Shown here: piece after piece, positions 10,313 to 30,052 of the stretch
Position numbering within the stretch: the first letter of the stretch is position 1
Layout: each line of letters starts with the position of its first letter
From: an uncultured Burkholderiales bacterium
Lineage (GTDB): Bacteria > Pseudomonadota > Gammaproteobacteria > Burkholderiales > SHXO01
Direction: 5' to 3'
Assembly: GCA_964523885.1 (NCBI GenBank)
Contig: CAZFYX010000072.1
Span: 9,240-73,239 of the forward strand
DNA length: 64,000 nt
Position numbers and translations under genes: made by a program
Notes under the pieces: model-generated
Database searches by the model: none
What the model was told of the DNA's origin: nothing
What the model saw: the letters and a program-made list of their open reading frames with translations, nothing else

Positions 10313-10914
10313 CAGTCGCCGTCGTAGCGCTGCTCGCGCCAGGGATCGCCGTACATGTGGTAGCCGCGCAGCTCCCAGAACCCGGCCTCGTCGCGCTCGG
10401 TGAACTGCAGCGCCTTCACCCACTTCGCCGACTTCCAGAAGTAGAGATGCGGCACCAGCAGCCGCGCCGGGCCGCCGTGATCGGGGGTGACCGGCTTGCC
10501 GTCGTAGGCGATCGCGATCATCGCGCGGCCGCCGACGAGGTCCGGCGTCGGCACGTTGGTGGCGTAGTCGTCGAAGGAATGCGCCAGCGTGAAGCCGCTC
10601 GGCGCCTCCACGCCCGCATCGGCGAGCAGATCGTCGATCGACACCCCTTCCCAGCGCGTGTCGAACTTGCTCCACTTGGTGACGCAGTGGATGTCGCCCG
10701 CCCAGGCAGTGATCGGCAGCTGGATGAACTGCGCCCAGGTCCAGCTCTTGATCGTCCGCGGGCCGACCTTCAGGGCGAAGCTCCACGTCTCGAGCGGCAC
10801 GGCGGGTGTGGGCCCCGCCGACAGCACCGGGAAATCGTCGGTCTCGAACTGGCCGGGCGGCAGGCGCGTGCGAGAGGCGCCGCCGCCGCGGCCGGTGAAT
10901 CCTCGTGTTGCCAT
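10312..10914 (-). CDS. Sulfite-oxidase-fold molybdopterin oxidoreductase (small, YedY/SO-like)
   Basis: C-terminal 201 codons of ORF 10312..11142. Start MATRGFTGR at 10914. Motifs IHCVTKWSK and GGPARLLVPHLYFWKSAKW. Its stop overlaps the downstream reductase start by 1 nt (TGATG). Confidence 0.75.
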   Translation of the reverse strand: MATRGFTGRGGGASRTRLPPGQFETDDFPVLSAGPTPAVPLETWSFALKVGPRTIKSWTWAQFIQLPITAWAGDIHCVTKWSKFDTRWEGVSIDDLLADAGVEAPSGFTLAHSFDDYATNVPTPDLVGGRAMIAIAYDGKPVTPDHGGPARLLVPHLYFWKSAKWVKALQFTERDEAGFWELRGYHMYGDPWREQRYDGD

Positions 10915-11005
10915 CAAGACCCTCCTGGCGCGGTGTGCATACCAGCGTGGAGTGCCGGTGCAGCGCCCGATTATGGCATCGCGGCGGCGTGGTGCGCGTG
11001 GCTGC

Positions 11006-12013
11006 TCAGCGGGGCATCCGCGCCCAGGTCGCGCATTCCGCGGACTCCTCGGGCCTCGTCCCGCCGGCGAGGATCTCGGCACGGGTCTGTTCGAACACCT
11101 TGCCAAGCGCGTGCGACGGGCCGGCTGCCTGGATGGCCGCATCGATCGTCTGCAGCGCCAGGCTGCGGCAACCGTATGCGTTCAGCGCGTCGGCGAGGTT
11201 GTTGGCTGCGACGACCTGACCGGGCTCGCGTGCGAGCACTGCCCGGTAGCCCTCGATCGCCTGCGGAAGATCACCCGCGCGGCGCTGCGCATTGGCCAGG
11301 CCCAGCCGGGCGAGCATATTCTCCGGCCAGCGTCCCACTGCCGCCTGGTACGACGCCGTCACATTCAGCCGCGGATTGGCCGCCTCGGCTGCGGCGACCG
11401 CGCGCACGAAGCCGTCGGGATCATCCGTTGCCGGCAGCTGTCCCGGCTCCAGCACCACCATCGACCACTGTCCGGCGAGCGCCCAGGTGCGCACCAAGTC
11501 GTACGCGCTGGTCACCTGCCGCCTGGTCTCGCCCGATCGCAGGATGAAGCGGTCGGTCTGCGCCGAATAGCCGATGACCACCGCGAAGTGCCAAACCGGA
11601 TAGCGCTCGAGGCCGAGATTCTGCAGCACGATCGCGGGGCGCCCCGCCTGCAGTTCGGCAAGCAGTGCCGCCAGCCTCGCCGGCGGCACATAGGCGATAC
11701 GGCCGGCGCTGCGCGCGGCGGCTGCCATCTCCAGCTGCAGCGATCCCTGCTTGCCCGGAATGTAGAGGCGCGGCCGTAGCGCCTCGGGATCGGTGTCGAT
11801 GCCGCTGTAGCGCAGCACCTCGGCCAGCGAGGCCGGGCCGCATTGGTAATCCTGCTGCGGGAAGAACGGGACCTCAGTCAGCTCGAGCGAGCCTGGTCCC
11901 TCCTGCTGCTGCAGCGCCTGCGGCAGCACCGGCGCGCGGGTGGCGCAGCCGGTGAGCAGTACCAGCAGGAAAAGAAACCAGCGCGCGCTGGCCGTGCTGC
12001 AGGCACTTGACAT
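11006..12013 (-). CDS. PA2778-family C39-like cysteine peptidase lipoprotein with TPR-like C-terminus
   Basis: 335-aa ORF with lipobox LLTGC. The Cys motif QQDYQCGPASLAEVL and the later WHFAVVIGY fit a papain/C39-like core. The C-terminus has TPR-like helices. Confidence 0.7.
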   Translation of the reverse strand: MSSACSTASARWFLFLLVLLTGCATRAPVLPQALQQQEGPGSLELTEVPFFPQQDYQCGPASLAEVLRYSGIDTDPEALRPRLYIPGKQGSLQLEMAAAARSAGRIAYVPPARLAALLAELQAGRPAIVLQNLGLERYPVWHFAVVIGYSAQTDRFILRSGETRRQVTSAYDLVRTWALAGQWSMVVLEPGQLPATDDPDGFVRAVAAAEAANPRLNVTASYQAAVGRWPENMLARLGLANAQRRAGDLPQAIEGYRAVLAREPGQVVAANNLADALNAYGCRSLALQTIDAAIQAAGPSHALGKVFEQTRAEILAGGTRPEESAECATWARMPR

Positions 12014-23950: not shown

Positions 23951-24895
23951 TTACTTGCCTGAGTCTGCTGGCAGGAACCCGTACTTCCGATACACCGCCT
24001 GCCCCGCCGGACTGACGAGGAACTGCACGAACGCCGCCGCGGCCTCCCGGTGTGGTGCATCGCGCATCAATCCCACCGTGTAGGTGGCGTACTTGTTCTG
24101 CACTTCGGGCAGCTCCACCATCCCGAGTGGGTACTGCTTGATGACGTGGTGGAAGTACGCTTCCGTGTACCAGACCGCCCCGGCGCTGCAGCGTCCCTCC
24201 ATGATCCAAAGCGGCGTCTGGCGATGGTGGATGTGGGTCAGGAAGGTCGTCCCCGCTTCCGCCTTGGCCGAGTACACCGCATTAACCAGCGCGTCCCCGC
24301 CCGTCGCCTGCAATGCCGGGATGATGACATTGCGCGCCACCCCTTCCCACTTCGGGTTGGGCATGCACAGCTTCAACGACGGGTTGGCCAGGTCCGGCCA
24401 GCCCGTGAGGCGATCCGGAGTCCCCGGGGCGGTCATGATCGCCAGCCGGTTGCGCGCATAGTCTTCGAGGTGGGCGAACCACTGCTTGTCGCGCTGCAGT
24501 TCCTGCATCCGCCCCTTGCCGGTGGCGAAGACGTCCGGCCGGTGCGTGATCCGCAGGTTGCCGATCACGATCGCGCCCTGCTCGATCTGGTCGATCAGCA
24601 CGCCGGGTGGGAGAGTTTCGACGAAGATGCGCCGGTAGGCGGGGTAGGCGGCCTGGAACGCGGTGACCAGGTCGTGAACGACCATGTACTGGTTGCCGGC
24701 GAAGAACACCACGAGGTCGGGGTCGACCACGTCGCCGTACAGATCAGGCACGTTGTCGATGCCCGGCACCGTGAAGTTCCTGCCCTCCTCGGGCCCGGGG
24801 TTCCAGGGTGGTTGGATCACTTCGCCGGCGGCTGCACCGGCCGCCGCCAGCGCGAACGCGCCCGCGGCGATCCAGTGGGCGACGCCGGTGGTCAC
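23951..24895 (-). CDS. Periplasmic substrate-binding protein (molybdate/sulfate/tungstate-type PBP fold)
   Basis: 314 aa with a signal-like N-terminus. The FFAGNQYMVVHDLVTAFQAAYP region resembles type-2 periplasmic binding proteins. The ligand cannot be assigned. Confidence 0.6.
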   Translation of the reverse strand: MTTGVAHWIAAGAFALAAAGAAAGEVIQPPWNPGPEEGRNFTVPGIDNVPDLYGDVVDPDLVVFFAGNQYMVVHDLVTAFQAAYPAYRRIFVETLPPGVLIDQIEQGAIVIGNLRITHRPDVFATGKGRMQELQRDKQWFAHLEDYARNRLAIMTAPGTPDRLTGWPDLANPSLKLCMPNPKWEGVARNVIIPALQATGGDALVNAVYSAKAEAGTTFLTHIHHRQTPLWIMEGRCSAGAVWYTEAYFHHVIKQYPLGMVELPEVQNKYATYTVGLMRDAPHREAAAAFVQFLVSPAGQAVYRKYGFLPADSGK

Positions 24896-25449
24896 AGCTG
24901 GATGAAGACGTAGCCCTGCTGCTGGAGCAGGACGAGGTCCGTGATCGCGGAAAGTGTCAGTTCAACCTTGGGACTGACCCAGTCCGACGCGATCTTGTTG
25001 TGCGCGAGCGCCTGGCCGCACACCATGATCTTGACGCCGGCCTTCTCGAGCGCCTCGATGACCTTCAGGTTCGGGTTGTCGACGTTGAAGCGCTCCTTGT
25101 AGTGCTCGTTGTCGAGCACGGAGGGGGTTGCCGGCCCGTGGATCACGCCGATGAAGTGCAGCTTCGACAGCGGCACGCCCGCGGACGCAAAGATGTTCAC
25201 TGCGCGCGCGAGCTTGTCCAGGGCGGGGTTGACCTTCTCCGGCTCCCCCCGCTCGGTCACGTTGTAGACCACCTTGTACTCGACATCCTTGCCCGGCTGC
25301 ATGGCGGCGTTGGGGTACGGCATGACCTTGCCGAAGCCCGGTATCGCCGGGTAGACCCAGTCGCTATCGGCGGCGTGGGCCGCGGAAGCCAGCATGGCCA
25401 GGGCCAGGCCTGCCAGGGTGGCACGAATTGCAAAAATGAGCTTGTCCAT
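24892..25449 (-). CDS. DsrE/DsrF-like family protein with signal peptide
   Basis: Frame of ORF 24892..25572, with the start at ATG 25449 behind the SD GAGGAG. Signal peptide MDKLIFAIRATLAGLALAMLASAAHA. Has a DsrE-like Cys motif (KIMVCGQALAHN). Its stop overlaps the start of the PBP gene by 4 nt. Confidence 0.6.
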   Translation of the reverse strand: MDKLIFAIRATLAGLALAMLASAAHAADSDWVYPAIPGFGKVMPYPNAAMQPGKDVEYKVVYNVTERGEPEKVNPALDKLARAVNIFASAGVPLSKLHFIGVIHGPATPSVLDNEHYKERFNVDNPNLKVIEALEKAGVKIMVCGQALAHNKIASDWVSPKVELTLSAITDLVLLQQQGYVFIQL

Positions 25450-25602
25450 CTGCTTCTCCTCGGGATGAGTCGTGGGACGACGGGATTGTGCCAGCAAGGC
25501 AGCGGATCGGCTGCGGGCGCTGTCTGTCGCACCGGGGACCCGGACCCCGAGCGCGCCGCCGCCGGACATCAAGCAATCGGTCAGATGGCCGAAGATGGGG
25601 AC

Positions 25603-25881
25603 ATGTCACGCGAACCGACGATGCACCCGCTCCCCGCCGAGGCGACCACCGCGTTACAGCGCGGCAACAAGATCGCTGCGATCAAGGTCGTGCGCGTCGC
25701 GCACGGCCTGGGCCTGAAAGAGGCCAAGGACCTGGTGGAAGCCCATCTCGCCGCCAACGCCTCCCTGCGGCAGGCCTACGCAAGTGTGCAGCCGCAGCCC
25801 GGTGGCCGTGGCCTGCTGCTCTGGGTCGCAGTGGTGCTGGCGGCGGGCTGGCTGCTGTTCCTGTTCCTCAAGCGCGGCTAG
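25603..25881 (+). CDS. Small membrane-anchored protein with a ribosomal bL12 C-terminal-domain-like segment
   Basis: 3' part of ORF 24808..25881. ALQRGNKIAAIKVVRVAHGLGLKEAKDLVEAHL resembles the bL12 CTD. It is followed by the TM segment LLLWVAVVLAAGWLLFLFL. Alternative starts are 25585 and 25621. Confidence 0.5.
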   Translation: MSREPTMHPLPAEATTALQRGNKIAAIKVVRVAHGLGLKEAKDLVEAHLAANASLRQAYASVQPQPGGRGLLLWVAVVLAAGWLLFLFLKRG

Positions 25882-28655
25882 CCGCGCCGGGGTGCGGCCA
25901 TTCGCCGCAGGGTCTGCCGGTCCACCTTGTCGGTGCCGGTCTTCGGCAGCGCGTCGAAGTACTCCACCCGCCGCGGATACTTGTAGGGCGTCAGCGTCGA
26001 CTTGACGTGGTCCTGCAGCACCCGCGTGGTGCTTGCGTCGCGTGGCGTGCCCGCCTTGACCACCACGAACGCCGCCAGCGTCATGAGGCGATTCTCCTCC
26101 TCCACGCCCAGCACTGCGCACTCCTGCACCAGCGGGTGCTCGGCCAGGCAGCGCTCCACCTCCAGCGGATGGATCCACTGGCCGCTGACCTTGATCAGGT
26201 CGTCGGTGCGACCCTCGAAGAAGTAGAAGCCGTCTTCATCCACGCGGAAGCGGTCGCCGGTGTAGATCCAGCCGTCGCGCATCGTCTCCGCGGTCTTGTC
26301 CGGACGGTTCCAGTACAGCGGCGCCTGCGAGTCGCCGCGCACCCACATCACGCCTGACCCGCCGGGACCCACCTCACGGCCGTCGGGATCGGTGAGCTTG
26401 ACCTCGTAGCCGGGCACGCGCGCGCCGCTTGCGCCCAGCTTCTGCTGCGTCAGCCGGTTGGAAAGATAGATGTGCAGGACCTCCGTGGAGCCGAGTCCCT
26501 CCACGATCGACAGGCCGTAGCGCCGCTGCCACTCGCGGTAGAGCTCGCCCGACAGGACCTCTGCGGCGGATAGGCACAGGCGCAGGCTGGACAGGTCACG
26601 CCCTTCCGAGCCGGGATGCGCGACGAGCGCGTTGTAGAGCGTCGGCAGTCCGAAGAGCATCGTCGGGCGGTGCTGCTCGATCACCGAGAACACGGACTCG
26701 GCGTCGGGCCGGCCGGGCCACAGCACGGTGGCCGCGCCGACCGAAAAGGGGAAGGTGAGCGAGTTGCCGAAGCCGTACGCGAAGAAGATCTTGGGCGGCG
26801 AGAACACCACGTCGTCCTCGCGGATCGCGAGGGTCCCGCGGCCGTACGCTGCATGTGTGTACGGCGCATCGTGGTGCAAGTGCACGACGCCCTTCGGCCG
26901 GCCGGTCGAACCCGAGCTGTACATCCAGAAGGCCATCTCGTCACGCTGCGTGATGGCCTCCGGCAGCGACTCGTCCTGCTCGGCGACCCATGTGTTCCAG
27001 TCGTGCGAGCGCACCAGCCCGAGGTCCGGCGGATCGACCGGTGTTCCGGTGTATACGACGTGCCGCAACCGCGAGCCGCGCACCGAGTCGTGCGCGAGCA
27101 GGGGGGCCAGGGTGCCGTCGAACATGGCAGCCTCCGCACCGCTGTCCTGCAGGTAGAAGCCGACCAGTTCCGCGGGTGACAGGGTGTTCACCAGCACGGG
27201 CACGTAGCCCCCGCGCAGGGCACCGAAGATGGCAGCGACGTACTCGGGCGTGTCGTGCATCACCAGCAGCACGCGGCTGCCGCGCGCCAGTCCCATCTGC
27301 GCGAAGCCGTTGCCGGCGCGGCACGCCAGCGCACAGAGCTGCTGGTAGGTGTAGCGGGTGTCGCCGCAGAGGAGGGCGGTTTTCTCTGCACGGCCGGCCG
27401 CCAGGTTGTCGAACAGGATGCGCGAGCAGTTGTAGCGGTCGGGGACGGAGAATCCGATCTCCCGGATCGGTGCGCTGCTGCGATCGAAGGGGTCGGCGAC
27501 CTGGTTGGGATCTCCGCCGGCCGGCGCATGTGACCGCCCTGCGGCGACGCGCGCCATGAACTGCGGTGCCATGGCCGCCAGGCGCTCGTCGTTGATGCGG
27601 CCGCTGCGGGTCATGTAGTCGTAGGCGAGCTGCCAGGGCTCGAGCTGCATCTTGTCGGCCATGCGCTCGTACCAGAACGAGCTGGCGTTGGCGGCCGAGA
27701 CCATCTTGTCGACGATCGGGCGGCGCTCGCGCTCGAATGCGGCGAGCGCACGCTCGACGTCGTCTCCGCACTCGCCGAAGGCACGGTCCAGCGCAATCGC
27801 GTCCTCGAACGCCAGCCGGGTGCCCGAGCCGATCGAGAAGTGCCCGGTTCGCAATGCGTCGCCGATGAGCACGGCGTTGCCGGCCGACCAGCGCGTATTG
27901 CTCAGCAGCGGGAAGTTGCGCCAGATCGAGCGGTTGGAAACCAGCGGATGGCCGCCCAGGTCCGCGGCGAACACGCGCTGGCAGTATTCCCGCGAGGCTT
28001 CGTCGGACATCCGGTCCAGGCCCGCACGGTACCAGGTAGCCGCGTCGCACTCGACCAGGAAGGTGCTCATCGTCGGGCTGTAACGATAGTGGTGCGCAAC
28101 CCAGACCCCGTGCTCGTTGCTGCGGAAGGTGAGGGTGAGGCAGTCGAACACCTGGCTCGTGCCGTACCACGCGAACTTGTTGGTCAGCCAGTCGATGCGC
28201 GGCTGGAACCGGGTCTCCAGGCTCCTGCGGACGATCGAGTGAACCCCGTCGGCGCCGACCAGCAGGTCGGCGGGCGGCAGGTCCGAGAGCGAGTCGATGC
28301 GCTGCTCGTGCCCGATCCTGACGCCCGCGTCGCGGCACAGCGATTCGAGGAAGCGGTTCAGCTCGAGCCGCGCCACGGCCGAGAAGCCGTTGCCGTCGAT
28401 ATCGACCCGCTGGTCACGATGGACGATGCGCTGGATCGGCCAGCGCTCCATGCGCGGAAGCAGTTGCCCGTAGAGGTCGGGGGCGTCGCGCTCGAGGAAG
28501 GCCAGCGCCCCTTCCGAAAACACCACGCCAAACCCCGCTGTCACGCCGGCCGGATTCTGCTCGATCACGTCCACCGACCACGCGGGATTGCGACGGCGGA
28601 TGAGGAGTGCGAAGAGCAGGCCGGCCGGGCCCGCGCCGATGATGACGGTGCGCAT
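25878..28655 (-). CDS. Fusion protein: N-terminal FAD-dependent (aroyl-CoA-type) monooxygenase plus C-terminal benzoate/4-hydroxybenzoate-CoA-ligase-type adenylating enzyme
   Basis: 925 aa. The N-terminus has MRTVIIGAGPAGL (FAD fold), GFGVVFSE and GADGVHS. The C-half has the AMP-binding motifs YSSGSTGRPKGV and YTGD, plus a benzoate-CoA-ligase-like IFFAYGFGNS. Confidence 0.85.
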   Translation of the reverse strand: MRTVIIGAGPAGLLFALLIRRRNPAWSVDVIEQNPAGVTAGFGVVFSEGALAFLERDAPDLYGQLLPRMERWPIQRIVHRDQRVDIDGNGFSAVARLELNRFLESLCRDAGVRIGHEQRIDSLSDLPPADLLVGADGVHSIVRRSLETRFQPRIDWLTNKFAWYGTSQVFDCLTLTFRSNEHGVWVAHHYRYSPTMSTFLVECDAATWYRAGLDRMSDEASREYCQRVFAADLGGHPLVSNRSIWRNFPLLSNTRWSAGNAVLIGDALRTGHFSIGSGTRLAFEDAIALDRAFGECGDDVERALAAFERERRPIVDKMVSAANASSFWYERMADKMQLEPWQLAYDYMTRSGRINDERLAAMAPQFMARVAAGRSHAPAGGDPNQVADPFDRSSAPIREIGFSVPDRYNCSRILFDNLAAGRAEKTALLCGDTRYTYQQLCALACRAGNGFAQMGLARGSRVLLVMHDTPEYVAAIFGALRGGYVPVLVNTLSPAELVGFYLQDSGAEAAMFDGTLAPLLAHDSVRGSRLRHVVYTGTPVDPPDLGLVRSHDWNTWVAEQDESLPEAITQRDEMAFWMYSSGSTGRPKGVVHLHHDAPYTHAAYGRGTLAIREDDVVFSPPKIFFAYGFGNSLTFPFSVGAATVLWPGRPDAESVFSVIEQHRPTMLFGLPTLYNALVAHPGSEGRDLSSLRLCLSAAEVLSGELYREWQRRYGLSIVEGLGSTEVLHIYLSNRLTQQKLGASGARVPGYEVKLTDPDGREVGPGGSGVMWVRGDSQAPLYWNRPDKTAETMRDGWIYTGDRFRVDEDGFYFFEGRTDDLIKVSGQWIHPLEVERCLAEHPLVQECAVLGVEEENRLMTLAAFVVVKAGTPRDASTTRVLQDHVKSTLTPYKYPRRVEYFDALPKTGTDKVDRQTLRRMAAPRRG

Positions 28656-28765: not shown

Positions 28766-30052
28766 ATGCAGCTACCCTCCAATCATCCTCACCGCATCGA
28801 GCTCAACGACGAGGTCCACGCCCGGCCGCCGGAGGCGCTGGTCGCGCCGCTGCGGCTGTCGTTCCTGGCGGTGTGGTGCGACCCCGCCCTGCGCGAGCAG
28901 GAGTACGGCCACGTCTGCAACCTGGTCGGCCGCTTCGGCGGCACCTGCCCGCCGCCCGGCGCCAATCACCTGAGCATCGACCTCGGACCGTTCCGGATGA
29001 AATGGGAGCGGCACACCGAGTTCAGCCGCTACAAGTTCATCGTGCCGGGTGCGGATGAAGACCCGTTCGCGCAGCCGGCCATCGATGCCGTCCCGGCCGA
29101 CTGGGTGTCGTCGCTGCGCGGGCAGCTCATGGTCGCCGCGCATTGTGCGCTCGTGCGGGGCGGCAGCGACCCGGTGGATCACGAGTCGCTCTCGTCGCGG
29201 TTGTTCGCTGGCAACACCCTGATCGGCGGCACCATCGCCGGCGGGGCCGCGGTGGCGCTGACCGACTTCCGCGTCCGCGAGGACGGCTTCAGCCGCTTCT
29301 ACGTGGTCGATCGCGGCATGACCGCGCGCCAGGCCGGGCGCATGGTGCAGCGGCTGATGGAGATGGACAGCTACCGCATGATGGCGCTGCTGGCGCTGCC
29401 GGTGGCGCGCCAGCTCGGCCCGTTCCTCAACGAGAGCGAACGCGAGCTCGCCCGGATCACCGACGCGCTGTCGAGGGCCACGGAGAAGGACGAGAGCCTG
29501 CTGCTCGACCGCCTGACCCTGCTCGAGGCGCAGATCGAGAGCCGCGAGTCGCAGCACGCCTATCGCTTCTCGGCGGCCGCGGCCTATTACGACCTGGTGC
29601 AGCGTCGCATCGCGGAACTGCGCGAGGAGCGCATCCAGGGCCTGCAGACCTTCCAGGAGTTCACCGAGCGCCGCCTTGCGCCCGCGATGGGCACCTGCCA
29701 GACCGTCTCCGCGCGCCAGCGCGCGCTGTCCGAGCGCGTCGCCCGCGTGACCCAGCTGCTGTCCACGCGCGTGGACATCACCCGGGAGCGGCAGAACCAG
29801 GCGGTGCTGGAGTCGATGAACCGGCGCGCCAAGCTGCAGCTGCGGCTGCAGGAGACCGTCGAAGGCCTTTCCGTCGCGGCGGTCACCTACTACATCGTCG
29901 GCCTGGTGGGATATCTGGCCAAGGGGTTGAAGGCGGGCGGGGTGCACCTGGACCCCGAGATCACCATGGCCGTCAGCATCCCTGTCGTCGCGATCATCGC
30001 CGCGCTGGGCGTGCGCAAGATTCGCCGTGCCGTGACCCGCAACGCGGCCTGA
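28766..30052 (+). CDS. DUF3422-family membrane-anchored protein
   Basis: 428 aa. HPHRIELNDEVHARPPEAL and KWERHTEFSRYKF are typical DUF3422 motifs. Two TM segments at the C-terminus. Confidence 0.7.
   Translation: MQLPSNHPHRIELNDEVHARPPEALVAPLRLSFLAVWCDPALREQEYGHVCNLVGRFGGTCPPPGANHLSIDLGPFRMKWERHTEFSRYKFIVPGADEDPFAQPAIDAVPADWVSSLRGQLMVAAHCALVRGGSDPVDHESLSSRLFAGNTLIGGTIAGGAAVALTDFRVREDGFSRFYVVDRGMTARQAGRMVQRLMEMDSYRMMALLALPVARQLGPFLNESERELARITDALSRATEKDESLLLDRLTLLEAQIESRESQHAYRFSAAAAYYDLVQRRIAELREERIQGLQTFQEFTERRLAPAMGTCQTVSARQRALSERVARVTQLLSTRVDITRERQNQAVLESMNRRAKLQLRLQETVEGLSVAAVTYYIVGLVGYLAKGLKAGGVHLDPEITMAVSIPVVAIIAALGVRKIRRAVTRNAA

Follow-up and report, generated by a model that had tools for sequence, protein, structure and literature searches.

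We analysed a 64,000-nt stretch of DNA from an uncultured Burkholderiales bacterium (GenBank assembly GCA_964523885.1, contig CAZFYX010000072.1, positions 9,240 to 73,239; hereafter the window), which encodes on its minus strand a 925-amino-acid protein (25878..28655) in which a flavin adenine dinucleotide (FAD) monooxygenase is fused to an aryl-CoA ligase. With a probability of roughly 0.55, we read this protein as an aryl-acid CoA ligase and aroyl-CoA hydroxylase on one chain that would make gentisyl-CoA and would descend from a pair of separate genes. Both halves retain their catalytic motifs, and the protein is orthologous to monooxygenase–ligase pairs that are encoded by adjacent genes in other bacteria, most of them beside genes for gentisate cleavage.

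Two complete enzymes on one chain

The gene was delimited from the open reading frame (ORF) list, its translation and full-length homologues, with an ATG start and a stop codon at 25878–25880. In all homologues, as here, the GxGxxG fold motif begins at residue 7, which lends credence to this start. An earlier note, made from the sequence and its ORFs, had proposed the same reading frame, and the list and translation agree with it; the motifs that it quoted were likewise recovered, namely MRTVIIGAGPAGL (residues 1–13), GFGVVFSE (41–48) and GADGVHS (134–140) in the N-terminal half, and YSSGSTGRPKGV (579–590), IFFAYGFGNS (623–632) and YTGD (798–801) in the C-terminal half.

Residues 1–378 (27522..28655, on the minus strand like every part of the gene described here) form a group-A flavoprotein hydroxylase domain of the VioD, SdgC-N and ACMR-N kind, as assigned from PF01494, NF006101, NF053547 and Protein Data Bank (PDB) entry 3c4a, and its border at residue 378 is where stand-alone relatives of 375–390 amino acids terminate. 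The domain opens with the dinucleotide-binding motif GAGPAG (G7–G12, 28620..28637), with the DG (D136–G137) and GD (G265–D266) motifs lying deeper. A linker of about 27 residues follows (379–405, 27441..27521), matching the N-terminal extension of separate ligases; the split ligase of locus L028, for example, aligns from its own residue 3 to residue 383 of the fused protein. The large N-terminal, AMP-binding domain of the ligase spans residues 406–817 (26205..27440; PF00501 at 417–782, TIGR02262 and PDB 4eat) and contains the P-loop of the ANL superfamily (A3 motif YSSGSTGRPKG, residues 579–589, 26889..26921) together with the aryl-acid pocket motifs FFAYGFGN and GSTEVLHIY. The C-terminal swinging subdomain (residues 818–925, 25881..26204; PF13193 at 832–910) holds the hinge D818/D819 and the catalytic Lys910 (25926–25928). 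An AlphaFold2 model built on the alignment had a mean predicted local distance difference test score (pLDDT) of 82.8 and a predicted template modelling score (pTM) of 0.80.

Pfam assigned FAD_binding_3 (52 bits, cut-off 22), AMP-binding (250 bits) and AMP-binding_C (66 bits) to the protein. Among NCBIfam models, residues 1–372 matched positions 1–382 of the 768 in PRK08255/NF006101, salicylyl-CoA 5-hydroxylase/oxidoreductase (E = 1.6e-102, 344 bits), a match that covers only the monooxygenase half of the model. Against the VioD model NF053547 the same half scored 254–258 bits, below the equivalog cut-off of 620, and VioD also provided the nearest solved structure (3c4a, E = 2.7e-66, residues 1–349). 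With PF01494 and the GxGxxG, DG and GD motifs all present, this half is a group-A flavoprotein monooxygenase. The earlier note had likened it to salicylyl-CoA hydroxylases, which the NF006101 match bears out, but VioD is about equally close, and the label 'aroyl-CoA-type' therefore leans on gene context and not on sequence alone. Bifunctional enzymes of the SdgC/ACMR type match NF006101 over its full length at 1078 bits or more; the fused protein falls outside this type, with no Oxidored_FMN domain found by Pfam. A stand-alone Old Yellow Enzyme (OYE) gene on contig C39 was considered as the missing half and dropped, being surrounded by unrelated genes, and the other stand-alone OYE genes of the genome also lie in unrelated contexts.

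The C-terminal half is, as had been proposed, a complete enzyme of the benzoate-CoA ligase kind. Residues 407–919 matched the TIGR02262 benzoate-CoA ligase family at 509–512 bits (cut-off 375), and all core ANL motifs are in place (A3 at 579–589, A5 GSTE at 722–725, A7 YTGD at 798–801, A8 at 815–825 and A10 at K910). The score against HbdA, a 3-hydroxybenzoate-CoA ligase (NF053567), was 382–384 bits, below the equivalog cut-off of 1000. BadA was the nearest solved structure (4eat, E = 2e-113, 383 bits), nearly equalled by the anthranilate-CoA ligase 4wv3 (370 bits). Matches of this strength in both halves far exceed what chance would give.

A search of 5.8 billion proteins revealed more than 120 clusters (90% identity) of 905–955 amino acids that share the full three-domain layout, with 65–86% full-length identity. 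The fusion is neither rare nor unique: it is common among Burkholderiales genomes from metagenomes, and it occurs in RefSeq on plasmids of Rhizobium leguminosarum. Its distribution within the order is patchy (10 of 301 sampled genomes, 4 of 142 genera). Conservation was similar in both halves across 118 homologues, and the linker was the least conserved stretch yet almost gap-free. Among 52 fused homologues, the invariant positions of the flavin half were G7, G9, P10, G12, A135, D136, G137, G265, D266 and A267, and those of the ligase half were residues 579–589, GSTE (722–725), G800–D801, R816, D818, D819, K822, K905, T906, G907, T908 and K910. Because the flavin and ANL motifs are all invariant, both activities are evidently under selection. 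Named members of these clusters are labelled only 'benzoate-CoA ligase family protein', a name that hides the hydroxylase half and its likely role; recognizing the fusion would improve the annotation of hundreds of sequences, including plasmid genes of cultured rhizobia.

We also scored the N-terminal half against 1.84 billion representatives clustered at 50% identity and considered the best 150 matches. One full-length fused representative appeared among these, and the fused family is therefore a tight group; a further match (P0173) was found by Pfam scan to be a truncated monooxygenase–ligase fusion. The next relatives were stand-alone monooxygenases of 375–390 amino acids (43–54% identity), followed at about 40% identity by proteins that were mostly truncated monooxygenase–OYE fusions of SdgC/ACMR architecture. 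The statement of the earlier note that the hydroxylase of the known pathways is fused to an OYE-type reductase does not hold throughout: stand-alone hydroxylases paired with a ligase (375–390 amino acids, 50–57% identity) are common and lie nearer to the fused protein than do the OYE fusions. A third kind of partner, a flavodoxin or FMN_red-type domain, is present in a 573-amino-acid relative (P0131). The hydroxylase lineage takes varied partners, namely an OYE reductase, a flavodoxin-like reductase, a CoA ligase or none.

Split pairs and the reaction they suggest

We inspected 80 genomic loci carrying the nearest monooxygenase relatives, which revealed 4 fused genes, at least 25 monooxygenases with a ligase gene directly downstream and a remainder with no ligase nearby. 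The downstream ligases are 54–62% identical to the fused ligase half, compared with 42% for the genome's canonical benzoate-CoA ligase. In seven of nine split junctions that we read, an ATGA or GTGA holds both the stop codon of the monooxygenase and the start codon of the ligase. Gentisate 1,2-dioxygenase was present at 21 of 27 split loci (TIGR02272, 574–620 bits, cut-off 442), and the split loci further carry either maiA (267 bits, cut-off 171) and a MarR gene, or an IclR gene, a hotdog thioesterase and a FAA-family hydrolase.

Split pairs and gentisate genes are combined in at least three gene orders, in different lineages. Bradyrhizobium and relatives have the monooxygenase, ligase, MarR, a maiA-type isomerase (267 bits), gentisate 1,2-dioxygenase (620 bits) and an ATP-binding cassette (ABC) importer; a Hyphomicrobiales locus (L049) has IclR, monooxygenase, ligase, gentisate 1,2-dioxygenase (574 bits) and maiA; and Agrobacterium leguminum and a plasmid of Agrobacterium vitis have a cupin dioxygenase, a divergent IclR–thioesterase unit, monooxygenase, ligase, FAA-family hydrolase and maiA. 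Because the Bradyrhizobium loci are closely related, they amount to about one observation; the other arrangements are independent. Hotdog thioesterases accompany the pair or a lone monooxygenase at several loci. A complex prediction on a natural split pair scored 0.00 and was not used for or against binding.

By analogy, these coupled pairs in gentisate clusters support the proposal of the earlier note that the fused protein would, on a single chain, convert an aromatic acid to its CoA ester and hydroxylate the ester. We assign it the ligase and hydroxylase steps because it is orthologous to the split pairs. From this orthology we infer which acid it would use, what it would make, which half would act first and whether the active sites would channel an intermediate. 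The C-terminal half would use ATP and CoA to convert a small, ring-activated benzoic acid to its CoA thioester, the acid being most likely salicylate, with 3- or 4-hydroxybenzoate as alternatives. Since group-A flavin hydroxylases need an activated ring, the true substrate is unlikely to be plain benzoate, despite the BadA-like pocket. The N-terminal FAD half would then use NAD(P)H and O2 to turn the thioester into gentisyl-CoA, from which a separate thioesterase would free gentisate.

Gentisate would in turn be broken down by the gentisate 1,2-dioxygenase encoded on contig C111 of the same genome, a maleylpyruvate-type isomerase and a fumarylpyruvate-type hydrolase. On C111 the dioxygenase gene (541 bits) is followed by one for a FAA-family hydrolase, with maiA (291 bits) about 10 kb further on, and a hotdog thioesterase that is 34% identical to the Agrobacterium one is encoded elsewhere in the genome. 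A gene for a beta-keto-acid cleavage enzyme (BKACE) comes after the dioxygenase and hydrolase genes on C111 (L025:8892–11687), and on an unrelated metagenome contig a BKACE gene is followed by a stand-alone monooxygenase and a 4HBT thioesterase (L031:6626–9740).

Given the ATGA and GTGA overlaps and the ligase extension that matches the linker, the fusion would most simply have arisen from a translationally coupled monooxygenase–ligase pair by loss of the overlapping stop. In a tree of the concatenated monooxygenase and ligase, 11 Burkholderiales fusions formed one clade (100/100), the Rhizobium fusion lay across a 100/100 branch among split pairs, and a third, partial fusion (L050) grouped with a split form (91/91). 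The fused forms were monophyletic in none of the bootstrap trees, and given the well-supported branches the fused or split state must have changed at least twice. For the monooxygenase domain alone, a placement of the Rhizobium fusion together with the Burkholderiales clade was not rejected (approximately unbiased test, p-AU 0.19), and the claim of independent fusion therefore rests on the concatenated data. The tree is unrooted and cannot by itself separate fusion from fission; it indicates that one or the other has happened to the pair at least twice, and the Rhizobium fused form probably stems from a separate fusion. In that genus the fused gene is found on plasmids of R. leguminosarum, R. 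beringeri and R. ruizarguesonis. The plasmid copy of R. leguminosarum Vaf10 encodes a RefSeq protein of 909 amino acids (WP_237352847.1) that is 50% identical to the window's protein end to end, and the surrounding region contains transposase and integrase genes.

Alternative readings and gene surroundings

Several observations weigh against the production of gentisyl-CoA. The ligase pocket residues resemble those of BadA and do not single out salicylate, and the N-terminal half is equally close to VioD, an enzyme that does not act on a CoA ester. The flanks of 19 fused loci contain no gentisate gene, thioesterase or MarR gene, and the neighbourhoods of fused genes vary by lineage; one locus alone (L044) has an IclR-type gene, directly upstream. 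Gentisate dioxygenase was found in 18 of 24 genomes of the genus, with or without the fusion, so that co-occurrence does not discriminate, and in one genome that is 92% complete (G018) the fused gene is intact and no gentisate dioxygenase was found. Stand-alone monooxygenases nested among the Burkholderiales fused forms lie in clusters without a CoA ligase, so the hydroxylase lineage can switch job. The DUF3422 gene, cbbR and the cbb operon, and binding-protein genes that neighbour the fused gene in the window were considered as partners and dropped, as they are not conserved beside other fused genes.

It had also been noted that no further aromatic-degradation genes are adjacent, which holds for the flanks but not for the genome at large: the same contig carries a canonical benzoate-CoA ligase and a BzdR/BoxR-like regulator about 30 kb from the fused gene, near the contig start, and the gentisate genes stand on another contig. 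In the canonical-ligase region (L024:2676–6618 on contig C72, about 3–7 kb before the first base of the window), the regulator (HTH_3 plus a shikimate-kinase-like domain) is divergent from the genes for the 526-amino-acid ligase and an alpha/beta hydrolase, with a weak enoyl-CoA-hydratase-like ORF beyond them. The region resembles a segment of a benzoyl-CoA pathway cluster that the contig end has truncated.

The fused protein might instead perform the same two steps on another substrate, outside gentisate catabolism, which we consider unlikely though deserving of weight. Examples would be the conversion of anthranilate to 2-amino-5-hydroxybenzoyl-CoA, the first half-reaction of ACMR without reduction by an OYE domain, or the processing of a substituted benzoate that an esterase encoded nearby would release. 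The model matched by the N-terminal half also covers 2-aminobenzoyl-CoA enzymes, the ligase half is as close to anthranilate-CoA ligase as to BadA, and the fused loci that we examined never adjoin gentisate genes. One lineage (L013–L015) has carboxylesterase, pirin and FMN reductase genes directly upstream and a TesB-type thioesterase gene downstream. On the other side, the orthologous split pairs are tied to gentisate 1,2-dioxygenase at equivalog-level scores and not to anthranilate-pathway genes, and sister genomes keep a canonical monooxygenase–OYE enzyme and its own ligases as separate, more distant paralogues (33–40% identity).

The surroundings in the L013–L015 lineage form a co-directional block that is conserved directly upstream of the fused gene (L013:3692–9958, L014:4613–9949 and L015:5178–9947). 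In addition to the three upstream genes just named, the block includes an alpha/beta hydrolase (not in L014), a WS/DGAT acyltransferase (not in L015) and DUF5996; luciferase-like oxygenases and EthD accompany the thioesterase downstream. This region may be an aromatic-ester catabolic island. In the remaining lineages the fused gene is flanked by unrelated genes.

It is doubtful, though conceivable, that the fused enzyme is a self-contained module and not merely an entry to the gentisate pathway. Such a module could remove or transform a salicylate-like signal or toxic acids, or could supply hydroxylated aroyl-CoA for another purpose. The idea arises because the fused loci are detached from gentisate genes, their neighbourhoods change and at least two changes between the fused and split states are indicated. 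If it were true, the fusion would have been selected by the direct hand-over of aroyl-CoA from ligase to hydroxylase.

We regard it as improbable that the two halves do not act consecutively, with the ligase being an ordinary aryl-acid CoA ligase or a mere adenylating enzyme and the monooxygenase acting on an unrelated, non-CoA substrate. The VioD-level likeness of the N-terminal half would fit such a division, as would the ligase-less monooxygenases nested in the fused clade, which lie in clusters without CoA chemistry. Against it stand the overlap of stop and start codons that recurs in many lineages and the repeated fusions or splits, a pattern typical of sequential enzymes or of a complex, together with the hotdog thioesterases beside the pair or the lone monooxygenase and a genome that already owns a canonical benzoate-CoA ligase.

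The nested forms belong to a Burkholderiales clade of the monooxygenase tree that mixes fused and stand-alone proteins (support of 99 in the Shimodaira–Hasegawa-like approximate likelihood ratio test, SH-aLRT), and because ligase-less monooxygenases fall inside the fused clade, the hydroxylase can evidently be taken up by other pathways. At four such loci (L036, L038, L042 and L047; for example, L042:8001–16452), the stand-alone monooxygenase is followed by genes for an MTHFR-like protein, a luciferase-like oxygenase, a major facilitator superfamily (MFS) transporter and an extradiol dioxygenase of the glyoxalase fold, with a MASE1–GGDEF protein, a cyclase-domain protein and a peroxiredoxin encoded upstream. 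These genes appear to make up an aromatic cluster not yet characterised.

The single ORF is a genuine gene and not an assembly artefact. The bioreactor metagenomes of one study and the metagenomes of another contain near-identical DNA, and contigs from a second sample and from the second study cross the linker (27441–27521) without a single indel (X2 record 6, X5 record 19 and X6 record 26), which disposes of the frameshift concern raised in the earlier note. That two genes were joined by misassembly or a frameshift has next to no probability, even though the ancestral state is two overlapping genes and some relatives hold the halves in different frames, given more than 120 independent clusters with the same continuous ORF, a gap-free linker, junction-crossing contigs from two studies and an annotated RefSeq fusion in cultured Rhizobium. 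Three genomes of the same genus read the fused gene in at least two frames, with the break in the linker in G005 (L020:5145–7968), near residue 128 in G019 (L007) and at several places in G014 (C4:140090–142852). These breaks could be real fission, decay or assembly indel errors; the G018 copy was intact by tblastn.

Three further observations concern the immediate neighbours of fused genes. In one lineage, a gene for a SIR2-family deacylase overlaps the fused-gene stop by 4 nt (10787–11584 in both L018 and L019). Sirtuins regulate AMP-forming CoA ligases via the catalytic lysine, so this deacylase may serve specifically to regulate the ligase half. In the window, the DUF3422 membrane-protein gene (560 bits; 28766–30052, plus strand) and the fused gene are divergently oriented with 110 bp between them, an adjacency absent at all other fused loci examined. 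A convergent ORF (24808–25881, plus strand) overlaps the end of the fused gene (chiefly 25603–25881); Pfam recognized in it a ribosomal bL12 C-terminal domain (E = 3.7e-08, residues 286–312) and no other domain.

Comparison with known systems

The closest parallel is the cehGHIR4 system of Rhizobium sp. X9, which is described as a CoA-mediated route from salicylate through salicylyl-CoA and gentisyl-CoA to gentisate (PMC13594046 and PMC11335346, citing Zhou et al. 2021, Mol Microbiol 116:783, and Ke et al. 2023, AEM). Like CehG and CehH, the fused protein combines a benzoate-CoA-ligase-type enzyme with an OYE-less hydroxylase that is predicted to act on the CoA thioester. The Agrobacterium split orthologues have the same physical order of ligase, hydroxylase, thioesterase and IclR beside gentisate-cleavage genes, in agreement with the published description of cehGHIR4 (PMC13594046). 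The window's protein differs in being one polypeptide, and its flanks in the window have no adjacent thioesterase, IclR repressor or nearby gentisate-cleavage gene. Judged by layout, the two systems may be equivalent.

SdgC, the salicylyl-CoA 5-hydroxylase of Streptomyces sp. WA46, and ACMR, the 2-aminobenzoyl-CoA monooxygenase/reductase of Aromatoleum/Azoarcus evansii, share a homologous N-terminal FAD monooxygenase half with the fused protein. The expected chemistry would be the same, with an aroyl-CoA being hydroxylated para to the activating group. Unlike the fused protein, they carry a C-terminal OYE-type FMN reductase domain and have a separate ligase; the window's protein has no OYE half, places its ligase in the C-terminal position and is about 40% identical to OYE-fused relatives. 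With BadA of Rhodopseudomonas palustris (4eat), BCL of Paraburkholderia xenovorans (2v7b) and the anthranilate-CoA ligase 4wv3 it shares a complete ANL fold, all core motifs and the pocket motifs FFAYG.GN and GSTE.LHI, whereas those enzymes stand alone at about 520 amino acids. VioD (3c4a, 8gqr), a hydroxylase of the violacein pathway and the closest solved structure to the N-terminal half, has equal length and motifs but hydroxylates an indole intermediate rather than a CoA ester and has no link to a ligase.

In the literature that we searched, which also covered salicylyl-CoA, NIH-shift hydroxybenzoyl-CoA and 2-aminobenzoyl-CoA hydroxylases, we found no description of a monooxygenase–ligase fusion. 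As a natural one-polypeptide version of two consecutive CoA-dependent steps of salicylate or hydroxybenzoate metabolism, the protein would be convenient for asking whether aroyl-CoA is channelled, and it would offer a compact part for making gentisate-type compounds. Its chemistry is not new, being that of established CoA-dependent hydroxylation routes (SdgABCD, CehGHI and ACMR); what appears to be new is the architecture, which places ligase and hydroxylase on one chain.

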